From the NCBI GenBank assembly GCA_025800285.1, contig JAOXRX010000037.1, positions 52,651 through 116,650 on the forward strand: a DNA stretch of 64,000 bases, given 5' to 3'. The translations under genes were made by a program, and so were the position numbers. Each line of letters begins with the position of its first letter. Position 1 is the stretch's first letter. The notes under the pieces were generated by a model. It did not search any database and was not told the DNA's origin. It saw only the letters and a program-made list of their open reading frames with translations. This document shows, piece after piece, positions 11,934-33,308 of the stretch. The DNA is from Alphaproteobacteria bacterium. GTDB lineage: Bacteria; Pseudomonadota; Alphaproteobacteria; JAOXRX01.

Positions 11934-12557
11934 TTATTTTTTATATTGAACTATTAAATCAATAGTTCCTATTTCTGATATTGATCTAAATTCTTCTAAA
12001 AAACTTTTTATTTCAGATGTTAGATCTATGCATCCTATAGAACCAGGATATGTACCTCCATGGATAGAAAACCCACTTCTTCCTTTTGTATCAGTTCCCT
12101 TTTTGGGATCAAGCCATACTCTTCCATCTCCCCATGACTTTTCCCCTCCCGGAAAAGTTCCACCATAAAATATACCTTTAAATTTATCCCAATCACTTCT
12201 ATTATCAGTATACTGAATATCAGGTCTTACTTTATATTCTCCTTCAGGAATTGGACCTTTATTTTTTTTATCAGTATCTTCAGGATGTTGATATCCTGGT
12301 TTACCAGAAACACCATTCCAAGATTTAATAACCTCTTCCGCCCAAATGAGTTTTAAAATTTTGCCATTAAATAATAAATAAGGTTTTCCTTCTCTTTGAT
12401 ATATTTTCTTTAAATGGCATCTACAATTTGGATGTATAGGTAGTTTAGGAGCATCTTGCATTTTATCAAACCTTTTTCCTTGATGTTCTTTGCATTTATC
12501 ACAAATATTGTCTCCTTCGTTTTGATAAACCCAATCATAAATTTCATATTGTTGCAT
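11934..12557 (-). CDS. MuF-type Cys/His knuckle fused to a Tlde1/DUF2778-like (L,D-transpeptidase-fold) peptidoglycan-acting domain
   Basis: Residues 19-47 read CDKC...PIHPNCRC, the terminal motif of Phage_Mu_F/SPP1 gp7. Next come LLFNGKILKL...SWNGVSGKPGY, GPIPEGEYKV and GRSGFSIHGGTYPGSIGCIDL. This is the DUF2778/Tlde1 pattern, with a conserved His and the S-x-G-C catalytic Cys. Confidence 0.7.
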   Translation of the reverse strand: MQQYEIYDWVYQNEGDNICDKCKEHQGKRFDKMQDAPKLPIHPNCRCHLKKIYQREGKPYLLFNGKILKLIWAEEVIKSWNGVSGKPGYQHPEDTDKKNKGPIPEGEYKVRPDIQYTDNRSDWDKFKGIFYGGTFPGGEKSWGDGRVWLDPKKGTDTKGRSGFSIHGGTYPGSIGCIDLTSEIKSFLEEFRSISEIGTIDLIVQYKK

Positions 12558-13129
12558 TATTTTTCTCCTTTTCTTGAGATTGGTAAATTATTATTTACTT
12601 CTGTTAATTTTTTATCTAAATTAATTTTCTTTTTCCCCCAGCAGTATTCAGCATAAACATTGTTAAAAGCTCCATCCTTAATAGCTCTTTTAATTTCTAA
12701 CAAAGGATAAAAAGAGCAAATTTTTTCTAAAAAAGATTTAGTTTTATTACCTAAAATTCCATCCTCTTTTAGAGCTATGATTTCTGTTATTTGATGTTCT
12801 TTTTTATATCCTGTGAGAATATTTAATCCTCTTTGCAAATCTTTTAAAGCTTGTTCTTTTCCTACTCTCTTTGAATGAGTCTGCAGAAATTCATTTAATT
12901 CAGATATTTTCTCTTTAGTTGAAGAGGGTTTTATTACTTTATTCTCTTTTATTGCTACCACAGGAGGTTCTTCTTCAATTACTTGCTTTTTTAGTTCTGG
13001 TTTTTTAGCGACTTTCTTTATAGGCCTTTCTTCAATACCATATTCTCTTTTTAAAAAGGATTTAATCTCTTGCTCAAAAAGGTGTTGTTTATAAGCCTTT
13101 TTAATATTTTCATAATTAAAATTTATCAT
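12557..13129 (-). CDS. Hypothetical protein with a Lys/Glu-rich linker and a PG_binding_1-like segment
   Basis: 190 aa. ALKDLQRGLNILTGYKK...LKEDGILGNKTKSFLEKI resembles the peptidoglycan-binding three-helix repeat (LQ..L..lGY...DG.fG..T..a...fq). Its stop overlaps the next start by 1 nt. Confidence 0.55.
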   Translation of the reverse strand: MINFNYENIKKAYKQHLFEQEIKSFLKREYGIEERPIKKVAKKPELKKQVIEEEPPVVAIKENKVIKPSSTKEKISELNEFLQTHSKRVGKEQALKDLQRGLNILTGYKKEHQITEIIALKEDGILGNKTKSFLEKICSFYPLLEIKRAIKDGAFNNVYAEYCWGKKKINLDKKLTEVNNNLPISRKGEK

Positions 13130-18851: not shown

Positions 18852-20027
18852 TTAAGATACATTTTCCAACCAAGATTCATAAAGTTTTTTCTGGTTGTAA
18901 TGCTTATTAGCCATAGCCTGCCTTAACTTGTCTTTGATTTCCGGCCAACCATCAACTAATTTTTGCAAATCATCATTCTTAAGAACAAGCAGAGTACTCT
19001 CTGTAACAGAGGTTACACTAGCAGTTCTGATTCCACCACCGCCAAGAGCACTAACTTCTCCAAAAAATTCTCCTTCTCCTAAACTTACAACACCATGCGA
19101 AAGATCCATTTCCATTTCACCCTTTGCAATAAAGTAAAGAGCATTTGATATTTCTCCTTTTTGAATTACTACAAATCTAGCAGGAACAAGTTTTTGCTTC
19201 AATACGGAAGTAATCTGAGCAAGTCTCTCTGGATCAAGCCCCTTAAAGAAAGGCACTTTTGACACCATGGAAAAGTTTAACATAAAGTCTTTTCTTTTTA
19301 TCTCTCTTGCAAAACCAGCAGCTAACAAACCTGCAGGCAAAGTAAACATAGCAATACCCATAACCGCAATTATACCACCAAACATTCTACCCGCTGGAGT
19401 TAAAGGCACAATATCTCCATAACCAACTGTTGTCATAGTAGCAACTGACCACCACATAGAAGCAGGAATGCTAGAGAATGTATCTGGTTGAACATCCTTC
19501 TCAAGCACCCAAATAACACCTGAAGCGAAAACAAATACTATAAGCATTGTAAACAATGCAGCAAACACAGGTTTTCTCTCATAGTAAAGCACTTCCCCCA
19601 GAGTTTTCAATGCTGGAGAATACCTAATAATCTTAAGTATCACAACAAGCTCTAGAATTAAAGCTGTATTTGGATTAATAGGAAATAGGAACCAAGGTAT
19701 AAAAGCTAAAAAGTCTATTACAGACAAAAATTGTGTCATAAACTTCAATCTACCAAAAACTGGATGGCGATTTTCTTCTCTTCTATCTTCCACACAAGAC
19801 CAAAGTCTCAATATAAACTCAACAAAGAAAACAGCTTTTGCTGTTAAATCTATTGATTTAAACCACATTGAGAAACCTTGATTTATAGCTTCTACACTAT
19901 CTAAACAAAGGGAGAAAACATTAAACAGTATTAGAGATATAATAAAAACTCTAAATATGTTGTACCCATCATTATATCTATTATTATCAGATAGTATGTC
20001 AAATGTTTTTTGTCTTAGTCTTACCAT
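18852..20027 (-). CDS. Cyclic-nucleotide-gated K+ channel (MloK1-like: 6-TM pore plus a C-terminal cNMP-binding domain)
   Basis: Selectivity filter TTVGYGD. The CNB-domain motifs are FFGEVSALGGGGIRTASV and a preceding beta-roll (VIQKGEISNALYFIAKGEMEM). Confidence 0.85.
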   Translation of the reverse strand: MVRLRQKTFDILSDNNRYNDGYNIFRVFIISLILFNVFSLCLDSVEAINQGFSMWFKSIDLTAKAVFFVEFILRLWSCVEDRREENRHPVFGRLKFMTQFLSVIDFLAFIPWFLFPINPNTALILELVVILKIIRYSPALKTLGEVLYYERKPVFAALFTMLIVFVFASGVIWVLEKDVQPDTFSSIPASMWWSVATMTTVGYGDIVPLTPAGRMFGGIIAVMGIAMFTLPAGLLAAGFAREIKRKDFMLNFSMVSKVPFFKGLDPERLAQITSVLKQKLVPARFVVIQKGEISNALYFIAKGEMEMDLSHGVVSLGEGEFFGEVSALGGGGIRTASVTSVTESTLLVLKNDDLQKLVDGWPEIKDKLRQAMANKHYNQKKLYESWLENVS

Positions 20028-20106
20028 AAAAAATAAAATCCCTTGTTTTTCTTAAAAATACAAGAGATTTCATTTTTTGTCAAATATTTAATTTCTGTTA
20101 AATAGA

Positions 20107-21045
20107 TTATTTAGTCATTTCAAAGAACTTATTTCTTCTGTCTTCACGAATTTCTTCTCTAGACATGTTCTCATAAGATTTAAGAGATGCTAAAATTGTT
20201 TCTTTAACTGCATCCATCATTTGGTTTCTAAATCTATGAGCACCACCTATAGGCTCTTTAATAATTTCATCAATAATACCTAACTCTTTTAAGTCTTTTG
20301 CTGTTAATCTAAGAGCATTTGCAGCATCTTTTGTGAACTTCCCACTTCTCCAAAGAATTGAAGCACAACCTTCTGGAGAGATAACAGAATAAACAGAGTT
20401 TTCTAACATAATAACTTTATTTGCTGTTGCAATAGCTATAGCACCACCAGATCCACCTTCTCCGATAACAACTGAGATAATTGGGACTTGAACATCAAAA
20501 GAAACCTCCATTGATTTAGCAATTGCTTCTGCTTGTCCTCTTTCTTCAGCTCCAAGCCCTGGATAAGCACCAGCTGTATCAACTAGAGTAATTACTGGTA
20601 TATTGTATCTATCTGCAAGTTGCATAAGTCTTTGAGCTTTTCTATAACCCTCAGGGCAAGTCATACCAAAGTTATGTTTAATTCTGCTTTCTGTGTCAGA
20701 ACCTTTTTCTTGGCCTAGTATCATACAAGTAACCCCACCAATACGACCGATACCACTTATAATAGCTTCATCTTCAGAGAACAGTCTATCACCAGCAATT
20801 GGCATAAAATCTTCTACAAAGTATTCTATATAATCTTTTGTGTGAGGTCTATCTGGATGTCTAGCAACCTGAACCTTTTGTTCTGGAGTCAACTTTTCAT
20901 AAGTTGATTTTAAATGTTTTTCTAGTTTAACACTTAATTTTTCAATTTCTGAGCCTATATCTACTTTATTCTCACATGATAAAAGTTTCAGCTCTTTAAT
21001 CTTATTCTCTAATTCAGATATATCTTTTTCAAAATCTAAAATCAT
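20107..21045 (-). CDS. accA: Acetyl-CoA carboxylase carboxyltransferase alpha subunit
   Basis: 312 aa with ARHPDRPHT, LVDTAGAYPG, ERGQAEAIA and GEGGSGGA motifs. Confidence 0.95.
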   Translation of the reverse strand: MILDFEKDISELENKIKELKLLSCENKVDIGSEIEKLSVKLEKHLKSTYEKLTPEQKVQVARHPDRPHTKDYIEYFVEDFMPIAGDRLFSEDEAIISGIGRIGGVTCMILGQEKGSDTESRIKHNFGMTCPEGYRKAQRLMQLADRYNIPVITLVDTAGAYPGLGAEERGQAEAIAKSMEVSFDVQVPIISVVIGEGGSGGAIAIATANKVIMLENSVYSVISPEGCASILWRSGKFTKDAANALRLTAKDLKELGIIDEIIKEPIGGAHRFRNQMMDAVKETILASLKSYENMSREEIREDRRNKFFEMTK

Positions 21046-21133
21046 AATTCTTCCTGTTTTTTGTTAGCGACAAGAAAAACCCTAACACAATTATAAAAAA
21101 AATGCTAGAGTTTTTTATATCAAAAAAATTTAA

Positions 21134-21742
21134 TTAGTTTAAAACTAACTGTCTTTTAGCATCAGAAGTAAAAGAAAGCTTAGGCTTAACTTCTTTAGCT
21201 TTATCATATTTAATAGAGTTTTCTCTCTCTGAGAATGAGTATTCTTCTTCATATTTCTTTAAAAAGCCTCTATTCATAGCATTTTGAACACTGCTTCTTT
21301 CAAGAACCTCTAGTGGTAAAGCTCTTTCAAGAACTTCTTCATAAAAGTTATCAGCATAACCAGATGCATGTTTTTCAATACCTGTAACAACTAGATCTTC
21401 ATTTTCACCTCTTGACATAAAGAGATCTGACAAACTATCTAAAAGGAAAGGAATTCTTCTACAGTCACACACTTCCAAACCCTTCTCTACCACACATCTG
21501 TGCTCTTTAATATCTTCAGGTATCAAATCTTTAAATAATTCTGGAACTCTACTTGAGCTAAATAATCCTTGATGAACAGTGATTAAGTTAATTGTCTCTT
21601 CAACTAAGTCTTCTCTTAGAATATTTCTATCTTTTAAGTTATCTTTATACTCTTTAATAGTTCTAGCTATTAATTTACTTTTTTCTGCTGTTCTTTTTTT
21701 CATTTTCTTAACTTCTGCTATTGTTAAAACTCTCTCTGACAT
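21134..21742 (-). CDS. Hypothetical protein, third gene of an orphan operon
   Basis: 202-aa charged soluble protein with no recognised family. It lies 15 nt downstream of the previous ORF on the same strand. Confidence 0.5.
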   Translation of the reverse strand: MSERVLTIAEVKKMKKRTAEKSKLIARTIKEYKDNLKDRNILREDLVEETINLITVHQGLFSSSRVPELFKDLIPEDIKEHRCVVEKGLEVCDCRRIPFLLDSLSDLFMSRGENEDLVVTGIEKHASGYADNFYEEVLERALPLEVLERSSVQNAMNRGFLKKYEEEYSFSERENSIKYDKAKEVKPKLSFTSDAKRQLVLN

Positions 21743-21757
21743 TTATTTTCACCTTTC

Positions 21758-22303
21758 TTAGATTATCGATAACAACTTTCCTCTTGGTATAACTTTTCCA
21801 CTTAGTGTTTTTATTTTTACATTATTATTATGTAATTTTTGATATTCAATATACTTAATATCCTCTATGAAGTCTCTAAAATCATCAAGAGAACCACCAG
21901 TTTCTTTTATTTGCTGATAACCCTTAACTTCAATTTCAGACCTAATTCTTTTATCCGCAATAACACCTGCAGGAAGAGATTTAGCCACATCTACCATATC
22001 AACTCCTTTATCATTAGCTCGCTCTATTGCAAAAAACATTAAATCTCTATTTTCAATTTTCTCTGCAAAATCTTTCGGCATATGAGACATAACATCAACT
22101 ATTTCAATTAAGTTAGCAGATTTAAGAGCCTGCTTCAATATATGTCTATCATATCTGAATTCTTCACCCATGATTTCTGAATATAGCATAGAAACACTAT
22201 TCTTATACCCCTTTTTTTCAGAAGCCATCATGGATATTAAAATCCTAGCTTTAGCTTTTTTATAAGATTCTTTTTCGAACTCAGCCTTATATTTATTAGA
22301 CAT
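21758..22303 (-). CDS. Hypothetical protein, second gene of the orphan operon; it carries two copies of an (E/D)(I/M)V..(A/M).(S/H)(L/M)P motif
   Basis: 181 aa. IEIVDVMSHMPKDFAEKI and VDMVDVAKSLPAGVIADK are both present. Its start lies 1 nt after the upstream stop. Confidence 0.5.
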   Translation of the reverse strand: MSNKYKAEFEKESYKKAKARILISMMASEKKGYKNSVSMLYSEIMGEEFRYDRHILKQALKSANLIEIVDVMSHMPKDFAEKIENRDLMFFAIERANDKGVDMVDVAKSLPAGVIADKRIRSEIEVKGYQQIKETGGSLDDFRDFIEDIKYIEYQKLHNNNVKIKTLSGKVIPRGKLLSII

Positions 22304-22304
22304 T

Positions 22305-22553
22305 TTAAACCCCTAAGTCTAAAGCTTTAGTTTTTATCAGACCCTTACCAGATAAAGAAACAGATTCTTCTTTTCTTCTTACATCAGATATATACTTTTT
22401 CAATCCCTCTTTTTGTTCCTTTGGACATTTAGAAATTAGTATAGAAGCATTATTTATTAAATTTTTTACAGGAAGAGAGTGAGCCAAAGCTACAATTTCT
22501 TCTGGTTTTGCTTTTAAAATAGCCCTGATTGCTTCTCTTTTAAATTTTTCCAT
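22305..22553 (-). CDS. Hypothetical protein, first gene of the orphan operon; it carries one copy of the same motif
   Basis: 82 aa. EEIVALAHSLPVKNLINN is present. A canonical promoter precedes the gene. Confidence 0.5.
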   Translation of the reverse strand: MEKFKREAIRAILKAKPEEIVALAHSLPVKNLINNASILISKCPKEQKEGLKKYISDVRRKEESVSLSGKGLIKTKALDLGV

Positions 22554-22585
22554 ATTAGTTACCTTTTATTATTAAGTTAAGATTA

Positions 22586-22614
22586 ATTATATCATAAAAT
22601 TTCATTTTTTTCAA
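22586..22614 (-). promoter_or_regulatory. Consensus-like sigma-70 promoter, TTGAAA-17-TATAAT, on the minus strand
   Basis: The reverse complement of 22609-22614 is TTGAAA, and that of 22586-22591 is TATAAT. The spacer is exactly 17 nt. The promoter lies about 30 nt upstream of the 22553 start. Confidence 0.55.
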
Positions 22615-22647
22615 TACAAAAAACATAGGGTTAAACCTATGTTTTTT
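22615..22647. terminator. Terminator after lpxC (bidirectional form)
   Basis: AACATAGG-gttaaa-CCTATGTT stem (22621-22642), extended by flanking A-runs and T-runs. Confidence 0.7.
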
Positions 22648-22674
22648 ATACATTAAATATATTTATATTTTTGA

Positions 22675-23625
22675 CTACATTGCCATTTTTAGATTAAAGG
22701 CAGCATTCATTTCATCTTCAACAGTCATATCAACCATTTCCCATGCTGATTTATCTGCAAAGATAGCTCTTAATAGCTTATTATTTAAGTCATGTCCTGA
22801 TTTTATCCCATGGAATTTACCTATTATAGGAGCTCCAGCCAAGAACAAATCACCAATTGAATCTAGAATTTTATGACGAACAAACTCATCTGCATACCTT
22901 AAACCATTTTCGTTTAAAATCTTATCATCTTCTACCACAACAGCATTTTCTAAAGACCCACCCAAAGCTAGCCCCATAGATTTTAAAGCTTCAACATCCT
23001 TAAGCATACCAAAAGTTCTTGCTCTAGAAATCTCTTTCTTAAAAGCTGTTTCATCTAAATGCATGTCTTTATCTTGTTTACCAATAGCTTTACTATCAAA
23101 ATCAATTGAAAAACTAAATGAGCTCTTTTCTGCAGGAGTCATAACCACAGATTTATTTCCCTCATCAACAACAATTTCTTTTAAAACTTTAATTGCTTTT
23201 CTTTTCTCATTTTGTTGCTTGATGCCAGCACAATCAAATAAGAATACAAAAGGTTCTGAAGAACCATCCATAATAGGAACTTCTGCACCATCAATTTCAA
23301 TTAAGATGTTATCTATACCACAACCTCTAACAGCAGAGACTAAATGCTCTACAGTACCAACACTTGCTCCAAATTCATTTGCAACAACTGTACATAACTT
23401 AGTATCAACAACATTATCCCATGTTGCGTTTATTATATTTTTTCCATCTTCTAAGTCAGTTCTGACAAAAACAATCCCTGTATTAGCTTCAGCTGGCATA
23501 AATGTCATATTTATGTCTTTACCTGAATGCAATCCAATACCATTACAATGTATTTCATCTTGTATTGTTTGTTGAAACAATATATTGCTTTTATTTTTTC
23601 TTGGCATTTCAATAACTTTATTCAT
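22675..23625 (-). CDS. lpxC: UDP-3-O-acyl-N-acetylglucosamine deacetylase
   Basis: 316 aa with GIGLHSG, TVEHLVSA, FVRHKILDSIGDL and KSGHDLNNKLL motifs. Confidence 0.95.
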   Translation of the reverse strand: MNKVIEMPRKNKSNILFQQTIQDEIHCNGIGLHSGKDINMTFMPAEANTGIVFVRTDLEDGKNIINATWDNVVDTKLCTVVANEFGASVGTVEHLVSAVRGCGIDNILIEIDGAEVPIMDGSSEPFVFLFDCAGIKQQNEKRKAIKVLKEIVVDEGNKSVVMTPAEKSSFSFSIDFDSKAIGKQDKDMHLDETAFKKEISRARTFGMLKDVEALKSMGLALGGSLENAVVVEDDKILNENGLRYADEFVRHKILDSIGDLFLAGAPIIGKFHGIKSGHDLNNKLLRAIFADKSAWEMVDMTVEDEMNAAFNLKMAM

Positions 23626-23770: not shown

Positions 23771-26209
<2,439 letters not shown>

Positions 26210-26464
26210 TTAGTTTATTTATTTTTAACACATTTACGATTCGGAATGCAAAGGAAAAATGCAAAAAAACCATCTTTTCCCCTCAGCTAAGTCATTGATA
26301 TTGTCGAGTTTTTTTCTTCCCCTTCTAAAAACATGTTTAAAAACGAGTTATGCATAGACTTAATTAAAAATAAATAAATAAAAATGATGTTTAAGCTATG
26401 TTGAGAAAGGTTAAATTAGCTTATATAAAAAAAGTTAAGATTGTTTATTGTATATAATAACACA

Positions 26465-26530: not shown

Positions 26531-27274
26531 TTATACTCTTGCCATTCCACCGTTAACATTAATAGTTTGACCTGTAATGTATCCTGACTCTTCTGAAGCT
26601 AGGAAAATAACAGTATTAGCTATATCTTGAGATGATCCTAATTGTTTCATAGGAATGTTAACTGTAAGAGCATCTTTTTGCTCTTGAGTTAGTTTATCTG
26701 TCATTGGAGTTGCAATAAATCCAGGTGCGATAGCATTAACTGTAATTCCTCTTGTAGCAACTTCTACAGAAAGAGATTTACCCATAGCAATTAATCCACC
26801 TTTTGATGCAGAGTAGTTACATTGACCTGGGTTACCTGTAACACCAACAATAGAAGCCATATTGATAATTCTTCCATATCTATTTTTCATCATTGGTTTG
26901 ATAGCAGCTTTTGACAGGAAGAATGGCATTCTTAAGTTAACACTTAAAACTGAATCCCAATCAGCATCTGACATTCTCATTGCTAAACCATCTCTTGTAA
27001 TACCAGCATTGTTAACTAAAATGTCAACAGCCCCAGCAATTTCCACAGACTCTTCAATAAGAGCTTTAGCATCATCTTCTGTTGCTAAATCTTTTACGAT
27101 TGTGAATACTCTTGAGTCATCACCTAGAGAAGCTTTTAAAGCATCAAGACCTTCAGCACCTCTATCAGTTAAAACCAAAGTTGCTCCTTGAGCAAATGCA
27201 GTTTCTGCAATTTTTCTTCCAATACCACCAGCGGCACCAGTTAGTAACATAACTTTACCTGTTAAATCGAACAT
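26531..27274 (-). CDS. fabG: 3-oxoacyl-ACP reductase
   Basis: 247 aa SDR with TGAAGGIG, NNAGI, the catalytic YSASKGG and the C-terminal GQTINVNGGM. Confidence 0.9.
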   Translation of the reverse strand: MFDLTGKVMLLTGAAGGIGRKIAETAFAQGATLVLTDRGAEGLDALKASLGDDSRVFTIVKDLATEDDAKALIEESVEIAGAVDILVNNAGITRDGLAMRMSDADWDSVLSVNLRMPFFLSKAAIKPMMKNRYGRIINMASIVGVTGNPGQCNYSASKGGLIAMGKSLSVEVATRGITVNAIAPGFIATPMTDKLTQEQKDALTVNIPMKQLGSSQDIANTVIFLASEESGYITGQTINVNGGMARV

Positions 27275-27350
27275 TATATTTCTCCTTAAGTTATTAAATA
27301 TTCTTTAGAACTTGTAATCTTATAACCTTTTTTATTTAAAAAAGCAAGTT

Positions 27351-28247
27351 TTATCTTGAGAAGCAGTCAGGCAAAGGAGCCTCTACACTAATCATTTTCT
27401 CTTCATTTGATGGGTTTGGAAAAGTTATTTTCTTAGCATGTAAATACATTCTATCTTTAAACTCTTTAAGATAAACTTTCTTACCACCATATTTACCATC
27501 GCCAATTATAGGACAACCTATCTTTTGCAAATGAACCCTAATTTGATGCATTCTTCCTGTCTCTGGATATAATTCAAACAGAGTAGCTTTATTCTCATAT
27601 TTATCTAAAACCTTATACCTTGTAACCGCTTCCTTACCATTTACACTAACAACTACTCTTTCATTATTTCCTAACTTCTTCATTAAAGGATAATTTATAA
27701 CCCCTTCTTTTTTGCTGGTACTGCCCCACCCCCATGCGACATAAACCTTTTTAATTGTTTTCTGTTTAAAGCCTTCTAACATTTTATGAGCTGTTTTATT
27801 GTTTCTAGCAAGAATTAAAACTCCAGATGTTTTCTTATCTAATCTATGAACAAGCTTTGGATTTTCTTTATTCCCAAATCTTAAAACCTCAAGCATAGAA
27901 TCTAAATTTTTAAAAGAGCCAGAACCTCCTTGCACTGCAAGCCCCTCCGGCTTATTAATAACTATAACATTATCATCCCTATACAAAACAGATTCAATTA
28001 ATAATTTTCTATCTCTTTCGTTTGGCTCATACTTTTTCTTTTTAGACTTTATAACTTCAACTTCTGGACAACAAACCTCATCATTAAAACAAACTCTTGC
28101 ATTTATTTTAACTTTTTTCCCATTAACTTTAACCTTACCTGTTCTTATAAACTTTTGAGCCTCTACTGCAGAATTAACAAGCTTATTTTTTAATAACCAC
28201 CTATCTAACCTGCTATTATCGTAATCTTTTTCAATCTTTTTTATCAT
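27351..28247 (-). CDS. RluA-family pseudouridine synthase with an S4 domain (RluC-like)
   Basis: RLDRWLLKN (S4 domain), HRLDKKTSG (catalytic Asp) and GRMHQIRVH. Confidence 0.8.
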   Translation of the reverse strand: MIKKIEKDYDNSRLDRWLLKNKLVNSAVEAQKFIRTGKVKVNGKKVKINARVCFNDEVCCPEVEVIKSKKKKYEPNERDRKLLIESVLYRDDNVIVINKPEGLAVQGGSGSFKNLDSMLEVLRFGNKENPKLVHRLDKKTSGVLILARNNKTAHKMLEGFKQKTIKKVYVAWGWGSTSKKEGVINYPLMKKLGNNERVVVSVNGKEAVTRYKVLDKYENKATLFELYPETGRMHQIRVHLQKIGCPIIGDGKYGGKKVYLKEFKDRMYLHAKKITFPNPSNEEKMISVEAPLPDCFSR

Positions 28248-28377: not shown

Positions 28378-28404
28378 TTTTAGAGAACTGCTTTTTTATA
28401 ATAC

Positions 28405-29079
28405 TTGCGAAAAGGAAAAACAAGCATTATGGGAAAAATATTAACAGTACTAAAAACTATATTTATAGACAAAATGTGGGATAACATCGAATTCTGGCAT
28501 TTATTCTTTTTAACTGTACTTATATCATTAACAATTATAAAAATTTTATATATAATAGACAGAAATTTTGGAGCTTTTAAGAAAAACAAACAATATGATT
28601 TGTTAATATATAGAAAAATATCAGCCTTTGCTTCAAATGAAGAGATTCTGCTTTTTCTAGATGACTTACTTAAAAACCTTAGGTTTAAAAAATCAGAACT
28701 AAAACAAATTGAAGATTTAATTTCTTTACTAAGAAATAATAACAATAGATATAAAAGTGAATTATTGAGAATGCATGTAGATAAAATCTCAAAAGACTTA
28801 AATGTTTTAAAACACTTTTTGATTATAAACTTTTCAGAAGAAGAGTTAGATTCTATTAGTGAAGACTCATATCTAGTTCTACTACCAGAAACATTAAGAA
28901 CTCTTAATGACAAGAATAAAAAAGAGATATTAGTGCAAGACAACATGGGTGCAGAAATTATAGCTCAAAAGCAAGAATTCTACTTCCAAAAAGAAAGAGA
29001 ATTAAAAGAAATTACTCAAAAAGTTAAAAACGAATACAATTCATATGTAGCTTTAATAAAGAGATATCTAAATGTTTAA
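28405..29079 (+). CDS. Hypothetical membrane-anchored coiled-coil protein upstream of ftsB
   Basis: 224-aa ORF with one TM helix (FWHLFFLTVLISLTIIKILYII) and a Lys/Glu/Leu-rich remainder. The likelier start is the ATG at 28429. Its stop overlaps the ftsB start. I prefer it over the antisense ORF 28380..28946. Confidence 0.5.
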   Translation: MRKGKTSIMGKILTVLKTIFIDKMWDNIEFWHLFFLTVLISLTIIKILYIIDRNFGAFKKNKQYDLLIYRKISAFASNEEILLFLDDLLKNLRFKKSELKQIEDLISLLRNNNNRYKSELLRMHVDKISKDLNVLKHFLIINFSEEELDSISEDSYLVLLPETLRTLNDKNKKEILVQDNMGAEIIAQKQEFYFQKERELKEITQKVKNEYNSYVALIKRYLNV

Positions 29080-31925: not shown

Positions 31926-33308
31926 ATGATTAATGAAATTAAATCTGAAATAGCTTTTTTGAAAGACCATCATCTAGAAAAAGAGGTCTGGAAAGAGACT
32001 CCTCTAGACTTGATAAAGAGACTTACATCAAATATAAAAGCTCATAACAAAGAACAAAAGTCTAAGCTGATTGAAGAAGTTAGAGACTTTATTGCTAAAG
32101 GCAAAGGTAATGACGACTCATTTGATTTTGTAACAAGAGAAGATAAAAAGTTTTACAAAGAAATTCATATATACAGACATAAAAACAAAGTTGTTGCAAG
32201 AATCGATAGGACAATGGATGACGGATTCGGTAAACACACTCCATTTGAGAACTTTGTAACAATTGAATACGATGAAGATAGCAATGAAAAAATACAAGCA
32301 AAAAAAATAAATATTTTAGGATTAGAGTATGTTCCATATCCAGCTAATCTAATCTTTGCTGAAAAACTTTTTTCTCATATAGCAGGAGAAGTTGTAGATG
32401 GGAAAGACCATGACCGCAAACATTATGACGGATTCATTAAAGAGATAGCTCATGAGGTTCCTGATATATTTGCCTCTGATGAGCAAAAAGAAAAAGATAA
32501 AGAGATAGCAGAGGAAAACAAATATAAAATATGGAAAAAAGAAAAAGGTTTAGACTCTGATAGGAAGCTACATAAAGAAGATCTCAGTAACAATATAATT
32601 TATAAGTGTTTAATCCAAGCCTTAGAAGATAGCGATTTAAATAGCATAGATACTGACGGCTTAACAGAAGAAGATATATTAAAGAATCTTGTTAGCAAAA
32701 TACAGCTTAAAAATGATGAGTTAAGTAAAGAACTCAAAAGACAAGCAAAAGAGTTTTTGGATCCAAATTATGGAAACGACAGCTTCAATATGGAGAAAAA
32801 ACTTAAAGATGGTGCTTTAATATACTCTATTGATAGAGATAGAAAAAACAATAAAATAGATGCAAACATAAAATACATGCAAAAAGGGGAGAGAAAGACT
32901 AAGCATATACATATGTTTGACCTTATTCATATGGTTTACGATGAAGATGAAAACAACCCAGGAGAGTTCGTATTATATCAAATGTATATAATGGGTAAGA
33001 AATACCCTGTAACAAAGCAATGGGAATGGCTAGGAGAGAGATTCTATAATTATTTGTTATTTGAACTACAAATATCTGATGATAACCATGTTGATCTAAA
33101 CCAGATGGGAGAAGTTCTTGATATTCTTGAAAACCGCTGGCAAGACCATCGTTATATAGGTAATGAATATCTAGAAGAAAGAAAAGTTCTTTTAGATAAT
33201 AAATTTGAAGACAAGGACGAAAGATACGAAAGACTACAAAAAGAAGAACAACTTCGTATTAAAAAGAAATATGAAGAACTCTATAAAATGGATTTAAAAC
33301 CTTTATAG
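31926..33308 (+). CDS. Hypothetical 460-aa acidic/basic protein built from two homologous halves
   Basis: The halves align in order: LIKRLTSNIKAHNKEQKSKLIEEVRDFI...GNDDSF...TIEYDEDSNEK...ILGLEYVP versus ILKNLVSKIQLKNDELSKELKRQAKEFL...GNDSF...MVYDEDENNPG...IMGKKYPV. No family recognised. Confidence 0.6.
   Translation: MINEIKSEIAFLKDHHLEKEVWKETPLDLIKRLTSNIKAHNKEQKSKLIEEVRDFIAKGKGNDDSFDFVTREDKKFYKEIHIYRHKNKVVARIDRTMDDGFGKHTPFENFVTIEYDEDSNEKIQAKKINILGLEYVPYPANLIFAEKLFSHIAGEVVDGKDHDRKHYDGFIKEIAHEVPDIFASDEQKEKDKEIAEENKYKIWKKEKGLDSDRKLHKEDLSNNIIYKCLIQALEDSDLNSIDTDGLTEEDILKNLVSKIQLKNDELSKELKRQAKEFLDPNYGNDSFNMEKKLKDGALIYSIDRDRKNNKIDANIKYMQKGERKTKHIHMFDLIHMVYDEDENNPGEFVLYQMYIMGKKYPVTKQWEWLGERFYNYLLFELQISDDNHVDLNQMGEVLDILENRWQDHRYIGNEYLEERKVLLDNKFEDKDERYERLQKEEQLRIKKKYEELYKMDLKPL

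Follow-up and report, generated by a model that had tools for sequence, protein, structure and literature searches.

An orphan operon between lpxC and accA with a predicted split helical-repeat protein, deeply diverged alleles and a conserved partner

Background

Two well-known bacterial systems, the agr locus of Staphylococcus aureus (agrB-D-C) and the comCD pherotypes of pneumococci, consist of a few old and diverged alleles that lie between conserved flanks, have a partner and coexist. Such an allele pattern is typical of recognition and conflict functions (immunity, defence, self/non-self discrimination, host interaction), and not of housekeeping. Here we describe a three-gene operon, whose genes we call A, B and C, between lpxC and accA on the minus strand of a 64-kb stretch of DNA from an uncultured alphaproteobacterium (contig JAOXRX010000037.1, positions 52,651 to 116,650; this whole stretch of 64,000 nucleotides is the window of the text below). 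The combined segment of A and B (AB) shares the pattern of agr and comCD in having deeply diverged alleles within a short segment, conserved flanks and a conserved promoter, and a conserved partner nearby. It differs from them in that the trio has no peptide pheromone, membrane sensor or kinase, in that all three products are predicted to be soluble, in the lack of any homology, and in the number of haplotypes, which is three only.

Other described systems resemble the locus in other respects. The alpha-solenoids (designed DHR proteins, TPR, ARM/HEAT and CID domains) are like the stack of short helices in the structural model of B and like the tandem unit of about 35 residues in AB, but AB matches none of the Pfam repeat families (TPR, HEAT, ARM, Sel1, PBS-lyase HEAT) at E ≤ 10, and the S/K-L-P signature of the unit is, to our knowledge, not that of the TPR, HEAT, ARM or Sel1 consensus. 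Type II toxin-antitoxin systems are similar in their small, cytoplasmic, translationally coupled genes, in their single promoter and in the variable upstream gene; the trio differs from them in its three genes (or an upstream protein of 254 residues), its fixed locus and the lack of a conserved operator. With the MgtE N-terminal domain and FliG, to which the initial annotation of this DNA had likened the repeats, the trio shares only general helicity: the Pfam models gave no match at E ≤ 10, neither family is among the Foldseek matches listed, and we have given up the comparison. The module falls outside any known family, and resembles helical-repeat scaffolds in its predicted fold and allelic specificity loci in its population pattern.

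Results and Discussion

A and B as two halves of one protein

The initial annotation described three consecutive minus-strand open reading frames (ORFs) of 82, 181 and 202 residues with gaps of 1 and 15 nucleotides, and this is exactly what the window contains: gene A at 22305..22553, gene B at 21758..22303 and gene C at 21134..21742. The A stop and the B start read TAA-A-ATG, and this start, 1 nucleotide past the stop of A, suggests translational coupling; C, 15 nucleotides after B, carries its own ribosome-binding site, AAGGTG. The arrangement lpxC-A-B-C-accA recurs on independent metagenome contigs, of which L001 matches the window exactly, L003 and L004 match it at 97-100% identity, and L002 represents a diverged haplotype.

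A further contig, L006, carries lpxC, a single ORF of 254 residues (P0005), a homologue of C of 202 residues, accA and a K-channel gene, in this order, and P0005 is collinear with A and B taken in succession. A is matched by the first 65 residues of P0005 (p ~ 3 × 10-10, Smith-Waterman alignment calibrated by shuffling), and residues 61-160 of B are matched by its residues 128-228 (E = 1 × 10-7, exhaustive HMMER search). Again a single nucleotide separates the stop of this fused gene from the start of C, and the junction reads TAA-A-ATG, as between A and B in the window. One predicted helical-repeat protein is thus divided over two genes, with A as its N-terminal and B as its C-terminal piece. 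Because the two are fused in one haplotype and tightly coupled in the others, their products probably act together, and from the gene fusion and the coupling combined we infer a complex of A, B and C.

Two other accounts of the A-B boundary were considered and rejected. A programmed +1 frameshift at GTT-TAA-A would join A to B, but L002 has GCT-TAA-A at this place, with the slippery context lost, and A and B stay separate ORFs across a synonymous divergence (dS) of 0.6-0.8. A split created by sequencing error is contradicted by the presence of the same stop and start in four independent assemblies.

Deeply diverged AB alleles in similar genomes

Between L002 and L006, nucleotide identity is 95.5% at the 3' end of lpxC, 91.8% in C, 98.8% in the C-accA spacer and 96.9% at the 5' end of accA, whereas AB is 27% identical at the amino acid level (~52% in nucleotides). 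Where the two AB alleles do share a residue, they use the same codon in 43% of cases, against 53% expected by chance and 85-91% in the flanks, and the background dS between the two contigs is 0.16-0.27. Codon agreement that does not exceed chance, against so low a background dS, indicates that the synonymous sites of AB are saturated, and this in turn implies that the AB alleles by far predate the genomes that host them and are not the product of fast evolution in place. AB is thus a hypervariable cassette, of which no fewer than three deeply diverged alleles occur in genomes that are otherwise much alike; this conclusion and the split of one protein over A and B are both new with respect to the initial annotation.

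The comparison between the window and L006 gives a divergence that climbs towards AB in the shape of a peak. The two are 99.4% identical over 20605..19419 (the 3' half of accA and the K-channel gene), 91-98% identical in the 5' half of accA and 75-83% in C, cannot be aligned in AB, and are 82% identical in the lpxC-A spacer and 85-92% at the 3' end of lpxC. The window-type allele (on L003) and the fused allele (on L006) both come from one metagenome of the Joint Genome Institute (3300045489), and L003- and L006-type alleles have been binned into a single metagenome-assembled genome at NCBI, with the locus-tag prefix N4A43.

As a separate observation, L002, L004, L005 and L006 are short (926-3776 nucleotides), and most assemblies break in or beside the locus. 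Such breaks are as expected of strain-level polymorphism, and further alleles may be hidden by them.

Selection on A, B and C

Conservation of the trio in a relative was a point set beforehand, and L002 retains the exact lengths and the reading frames of A, B and C at a dS of 0.6-0.8. Between the window and L002 the ratio of nonsynonymous to synonymous divergence (dN/dS) is 0.48 for A, 0.19 for B and 0.13 for C, and for the fragments of the flanking genes it is 0.05 (lpxC) and 0.02 (accA). A is the fastest-evolving part, with 47% amino acid identity to its counterpart in L002, and C has 77-81% amino acid identity between haplotype classes. Residues 87-153 of C combine a dS of 1.79 with a dN/dS of 0.07 in the same comparison, as would be expected from deep coalescence under purifying selection. 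Together with the retained lengths, these ratios show A, B and C to be real genes, kept intact under purifying selection. The cysteine cluster noticed in C at the outset is conserved in part: C83 and C92 are invariant, and the third position, C94, varies between C, R and H.

On a shorter time scale, the window and L003, which are otherwise ~99.5% identical, differ at 21 sites in C (21134-21742; 6303-6911 in L003), nearly all of them in the 3' two-thirds of the gene. The same pair has three differences in A, all non-synonymous, and two in B, both synonymous.

Repeat unit, fold and similarity between B and C

A and B together hold three copies of a unit of about 35 residues, which comprises a short helix, an S/K-L-P turn and the next helix. 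Unit 1 covers residues 7-40 of A (...EEIVALAHSLP...; 22434..22535, coordinates from a hidden Markov model (HMM) of the unit), and units 2 and 3 cover residues 54-88 (...IEIVDVMSHMP...; 22040..22144) and 89-123 (...VDMVDVAKSLP...; 21935..22039) of B, as placed by sub-profiles and the unit HMM. The coding DNA of KPEEIVALAHSLP in A and that of KGVDMVDVAKSLP in B are identical, in frame, at 30 of 40 nucleotides, a value reached by none of 1000 codon shuffles (mean 25, maximum 29), and in L002, too, this register gives the best match. We also cut the three-allele alignment of AB into six segments and compared the resulting sub-profiles with hhalign. Unit 1 matched unit 3 with P = 1.1 × 10-4 and unit 2 with P = 0.0046, and units 2 and 3 matched each other with P = 0.0043; for the remaining 12 segment pairs P was at least 0.038. 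Unit 3 is the best conserved block over all three AB alleles. The motif that was initially said to be shared by all three proteins therefore stands for A and B, with the shuffles and the profile comparisons (P from 1 × 10-4 to 0.0046) behind it, but its supposed echo in C does not, as the unit HMM finds no match in C or elsewhere in the window. Neither tblastn nor the unit HMM detects a paralogue of the trio within these 64 kb.

The AlphaFold2 (AF2) model of B is all-helical, with short helices in a stack, and together with the tandem unit it supports the helical-repeat character proposed initially. Its mean predicted local distance difference test score (pLDDT) is 61 overall and above 80 for residues 90-160, so that the confident part amounts to only ~70 residues. 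Foldseek searches with this model returned DHR4, TPR and importin-alpha, all with E ≥ 0.19, and the predicted fold is best described as a generic helical solenoid and nothing more specific. The AF2 model of C is unusable (pLDDT 40). At the level of sequence, B and C show a marginal, collinear similarity (BLASTP E = 4 × 10-4), with shuffle tests giving p ~0.01 for the pair in the window and 0.002 for the pair on L006, and with P = 0.004 for the AB profile against the C profile, collinear over 174 columns. On this basis, B and C may be distant paralogues.

Predicted transcription unit and its borders

The trio is preceded by a promoter of the sigma-70 type, TTGAAA-17-TATAAT, whose -10 is extended by TG (TGnTATAAT), at 22586..22614 on the minus strand, with a predicted transcription start at ~22579. 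The initial annotation ranked it among the best promoters of the window, and rightly so: it scores 11/12 against the consensus, one of seven such matches on both strands of the 64 kb, and it is one of two among these with the TG extension. All haplotypes retain the -35, the TG and the -10, although one of them reads TACAAT, and the predicted promoter is retained in L002, L003 and L006 despite the replaced coding sequence downstream. The 5' untranslated region differs between haplotypes. Judged from its promoter, the operon is apparently strongly expressed.

Upstream, lpxC (23625..22675, minus strand) is the first neighbour of the trio, and the insulation by its terminator that was proposed at the outset is upheld. 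This intrinsic terminator hairpin at 22615..22650 on the same strand (an A-run, a CATAGG stem, a loop of 6 nucleotides, CCTATG and a T-run) has a folding energy of -16.1 kcal/mol (z = -4.85), none of 200 shuffles is as stable, and across four haplotypes its stem is invariant and its loop variable. It is thus predicted to insulate the operon from lpxC.

On the other side, accA (21045..20107, minus strand) follows C after a spacer of 88 nucleotides (21046-21133), which contains a conserved hairpin (AAAAAACTCTAGCA / TGTTAGGGTTTTT; 21075..21116, minus strand) with z = -3.4, equalled in stability by 1 of 200 shuffles. The hairpin has TATAAT inside its loop and is followed by a U-rich tract. The spacer is 95-99% identical among haplotypes, whereas the neighbouring genes differ by 5-20%, and the sole change in the stem, from U.G to C.G, preserves pairing. 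No known RNA family in Rfam matches the hairpin or the region, and accA itself lacks a good sigma-70 promoter. The hairpin is probably a weak terminator or attenuator, or the leader of accA; a role as attenuator or leader in the control of accA is possible. With the terminator of lpxC, the conserved promoter, three close genes and this hairpin before accA, the trio has the predicted layout of a self-contained transcription unit.

At ~29-30%, the operon differs little from its neighbours in G + C content, which is only slightly low. Hydrophobicity over 19 residues (Kyte-Doolittle) never exceeds 1.14 in A, B or C, and no signal peptide or membrane segment is found in any of them; all three are predicted to be soluble proteins.

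Searches for relatives

That the trio belongs to no recognised family, as noted initially, is confirmed by searches of Pfam, NCBIfam, PADLOC and PHROGs, which gave nothing credible for any allele. In hmmscan searches against Pfam-A the limit was E ≤ 10 for the alleles of the window and E ≤ 1 for the other alleles. PADLOC-DB 2.0 gave a single match, of A to a 'control protein' (12 bits, E = 0.034), and no defence-system match for B, C or the other alleles. The best matches in PHROGs had E ≥ 0.0076 and were to families without known function, and profile searches of the sequences in the PDB yielded no credible match. With tblastn, too, none of 50,697 phage or 72,556 plasmid records gave a credible match; scans of IMG/VR were negative, and a fold search of BFVD returned only E > 1.

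When 5.8 billion protein clusters were queried through a word index with B, C and the AB profile, this locus alone came back. The B profile, run exhaustively with HMMER over 1.84 billion representatives, found the B protein of L002 and, as a credible remote match, P0005; three other matches (P0006-P0008) were rejected as spurious, being long, highly repetitive proteins with many short-stretch matches. Overall, searches of some 15 billion proteins turned up the same locus only, in a few metagenomes. Two scans of metagenome contigs revealed no further alleles or relatives, and exact-protein look-ups with AccA, LpxC, the K-channel protein, A and P0004 led to already-known contigs only. The GTDB species set, examined by a pattern scan, yielded neither the locus nor a homologue of C; the best AccA that it recovered is ~55% identical, and the lack of a close AccA there means that no close relative was available for a comparison of synteny. 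The claim that the module is lineage-specific is thus supported: it was found at one locus only, on a handful of metagenome contigs, and has no detectable relatives outside one bacterial lineage. One source of the locus, run SRR15960039, has been used as a coral metagenome (bioRxiv 10.1101/2024.03.11.584349).

A phage, plasmid or mobile origin was considered and rejected, given the lack of matches, the lack of border repeats and a G + C content that is only slightly low. Direct repeats in the flanks do not exceed chance, and no transfer RNA gene was found at the borders. Elsewhere in the window, the ORFs at 130-681, 28380-28946 and 31926-33308 (183-460 residues) also lack a Pfam match; the genome is apparently rich in lineage-private genes, which makes orphans as such less surprising.

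Other variable or unusual features of the window

The locus is not the only place at which the window departs from L003. Over 27217-27716 the two differ at 56 of 500 nucleotides, against a background of 0-3 differences per 250 nucleotides; this tract, which spans a pseudouridine-synthase gene (27351..28247) and the 3' end of fabG, resembles another recombination tract. Near 26227, between fabG (26531..27274) and gyrB (26191..23771), L003 has about 330 extra nucleotides (1519-1830 in L003), which encode an ORF of 100-103 residues with an N-terminal hydrophobic segment (MIKRKAYIIFIIILLSIFLLL...). This small gene, missing from the window, thus varies between strains and lies directly upstream of gyrB.

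Farther away, the minus strand contains an ORF of 207 residues with a Tlde1 domain (11934-13129 together with its neighbour; E = 1 × 10-7, 32.7 bits against a Pfam cut-off of 30.1). Tlde1 is an effector domain of the L,D-transpeptidase type that has been described in type VI secretion. The start of this ORF abuts the stop of an upstream orphan ORF of 190 residues, and the two may be an effector-immunity pair.

A proposed recognition complex and its rivals

The reading that we favour, to which we assign a probability of about 0.38, is that of a cytoplasmic complex in which recognition falls to the variable AB, C is its constant partner, and balancing selection or recombination would sustain the polymorphism. 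AB and C would assemble in fixed proportions; the hypervariable solenoid of AB would provide a binding or specificity surface, and the conserved C would be the constant partner, as adaptor or effector. Balancing or frequency-dependent selection, in concert with homologous recombination, would preserve the alleles. A bolder form of this proposal, in which the trio is a previously undescribed intracellular specificity or conflict module, with a split or fused AB 'reader', ancient, recombining and balanced alleles and a constant C, which arose within one coral-associated lineage and is confined to it, is doubtful in our estimate.

Several points count against the cytoplasmic recognition complex. 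The AB haplotypes number three (window/L003, L002 and L006), all on short metagenomic contigs, and the abrupt switch of L006 from 94% to 100% identity near 20605 could be an assembly chimera and not a recombination breakpoint, although the comparison of L002 with L006 is independent of this switch. Divergence is mosaic elsewhere in the population too, for example at 27217..27716 and at the indel near 26227, so that recombination alone could yield a local peak. In no sub-region does dN/dS exceed 1 (the maximum is 0.71, for residues 1-45 of A), and with values below 1 everywhere positive selection is not demonstrated. The role of C as effector or adaptor is purely conjectural, essential genes flank the locus, and no mobile-element or defence-island neighbours were seen among the ORFs scanned.

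We rank the rivals, from the strongest down, as neutral introgression, a toxin-antitoxin-like module, secreted effectors and regulation of LpxC or AccA. According to the first, which we regard as possible if somewhat unlikely, A, B and C are ordinary fast-evolving orphans with a minor or lineage-private housekeeping role, and the peak of divergence results from neutral introgression (homologous recombination) from a more distant relative and perhaps in part from a chimeric contig, without any selection for diversity. A dN/dS that is always below 1 would be natural under this scenario, as would the abrupt switch of identity within accA, a G + C content near that of the neighbours, the mosaic tracts and indels between near-identical strains at 27217..27716 and ~26227, and the small number of haplotypes. 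It explains less well why, in each of two independent comparisons, the stretch of greatest divergence matches the AB reading frame exactly, or why the promoter, the ribosome-binding context, the frames and the S/K-L-P units 1 (in A) and 3 (in B) survive a divergence that is saturating. Two alleles, moreover, occur together in one sample, and the distant donor must have carried the same lpxC-AB-C-accA locus, but no such donor was found among the 15 billion proteins.

Small, coupled cytoplasmic genes behind a strong predicted promoter, with a variable gene upstream and a conserved one downstream, also recall an addiction or abortive-infection module of the toxin-antitoxin type, in which AB would be the variable antitoxin and C the conserved toxin; the single nucleotide between the AB stop and the C start on L006 and the very weak PADLOC match of A to a 'control protein' (E = 0.034) point the same way. 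Yet Pfam, NCBIfam and PADLOC reveal no known toxin or antitoxin domain in any allele, AB (254-263 residues) is large for an antitoxin, and no conserved operator-like palindrome was found at the promoter, whose 5' untranslated region is variable. The module occupies one fixed chromosomal site in every strain seen, neither patchy nor mobile, and has no flanking repeats. We consider this explanation improbable.

Helical-repeat, lineage-restricted and fast-evolving proteins are typical of effectors, and A, B and C might on this ground be effectors of host interaction, secreted by a coral-associated bacterium and evolving in an arms race with its host or a co-resident eukaryote. The coral origin ascribed to run SRR15960039 is in keeping with this, and the ORF with the Tlde1 domain makes a secretion-based conflict repertoire plausible. 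The three proteins, however, lack a signal peptide or any recognised secretion signal, the operon is not adjoined by secretion-system genes, and fusion to or coupling with a conserved partner fits an intracellular complex better. The LysR and AsnC regulators, the hybrid kinase and the cyclic-nucleotide-gated channel encoded in the window are, in addition, unlike a reduced endosymbiont, and we hold secreted effectors to be slightly more improbable still. Least credible are lineage-specific regulators of envelope lipid synthesis that act on LpxC and/or acetyl-CoA carboxylase, for which the position between lpxC and accA is the only support, together with a weak, highly conserved hairpin and the possible read-through into an accA without a good promoter, since alleles with 27% identity in one population are unexpected of a regulator of two essential, highly conserved enzymes with a dN/dS of 0.02-0.05 and neither Pfam nor NCBIfam reveals any similarity to LapB/YciM, FtsH adaptors or regulators of acetyl-CoA carboxylase.

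Conclusions

The anatomy of the locus, that is, an insulated unit, a split repeat protein with its partner, orphan status and allelic hypervariability, is solid, and from it we infer the function of a recognition complex. Should the allelic pattern fail, the trio would be one more lineage-restricted hypothetical operon, of value for its clean annotation of promoter, terminator and genes. If the pattern holds, it would be a compact, strongly expressed and homologue-free cytoplasmic module whose variable half resembles the specificity determinant of a recognition system, and would thereby offer a way into an undescribed type of strain-level interaction (for immunity, for defence or for recognition of a host) in a coral-associated bacterium that has been little studied, as well as a natural example of gene fission and fusion in a repeat protein.

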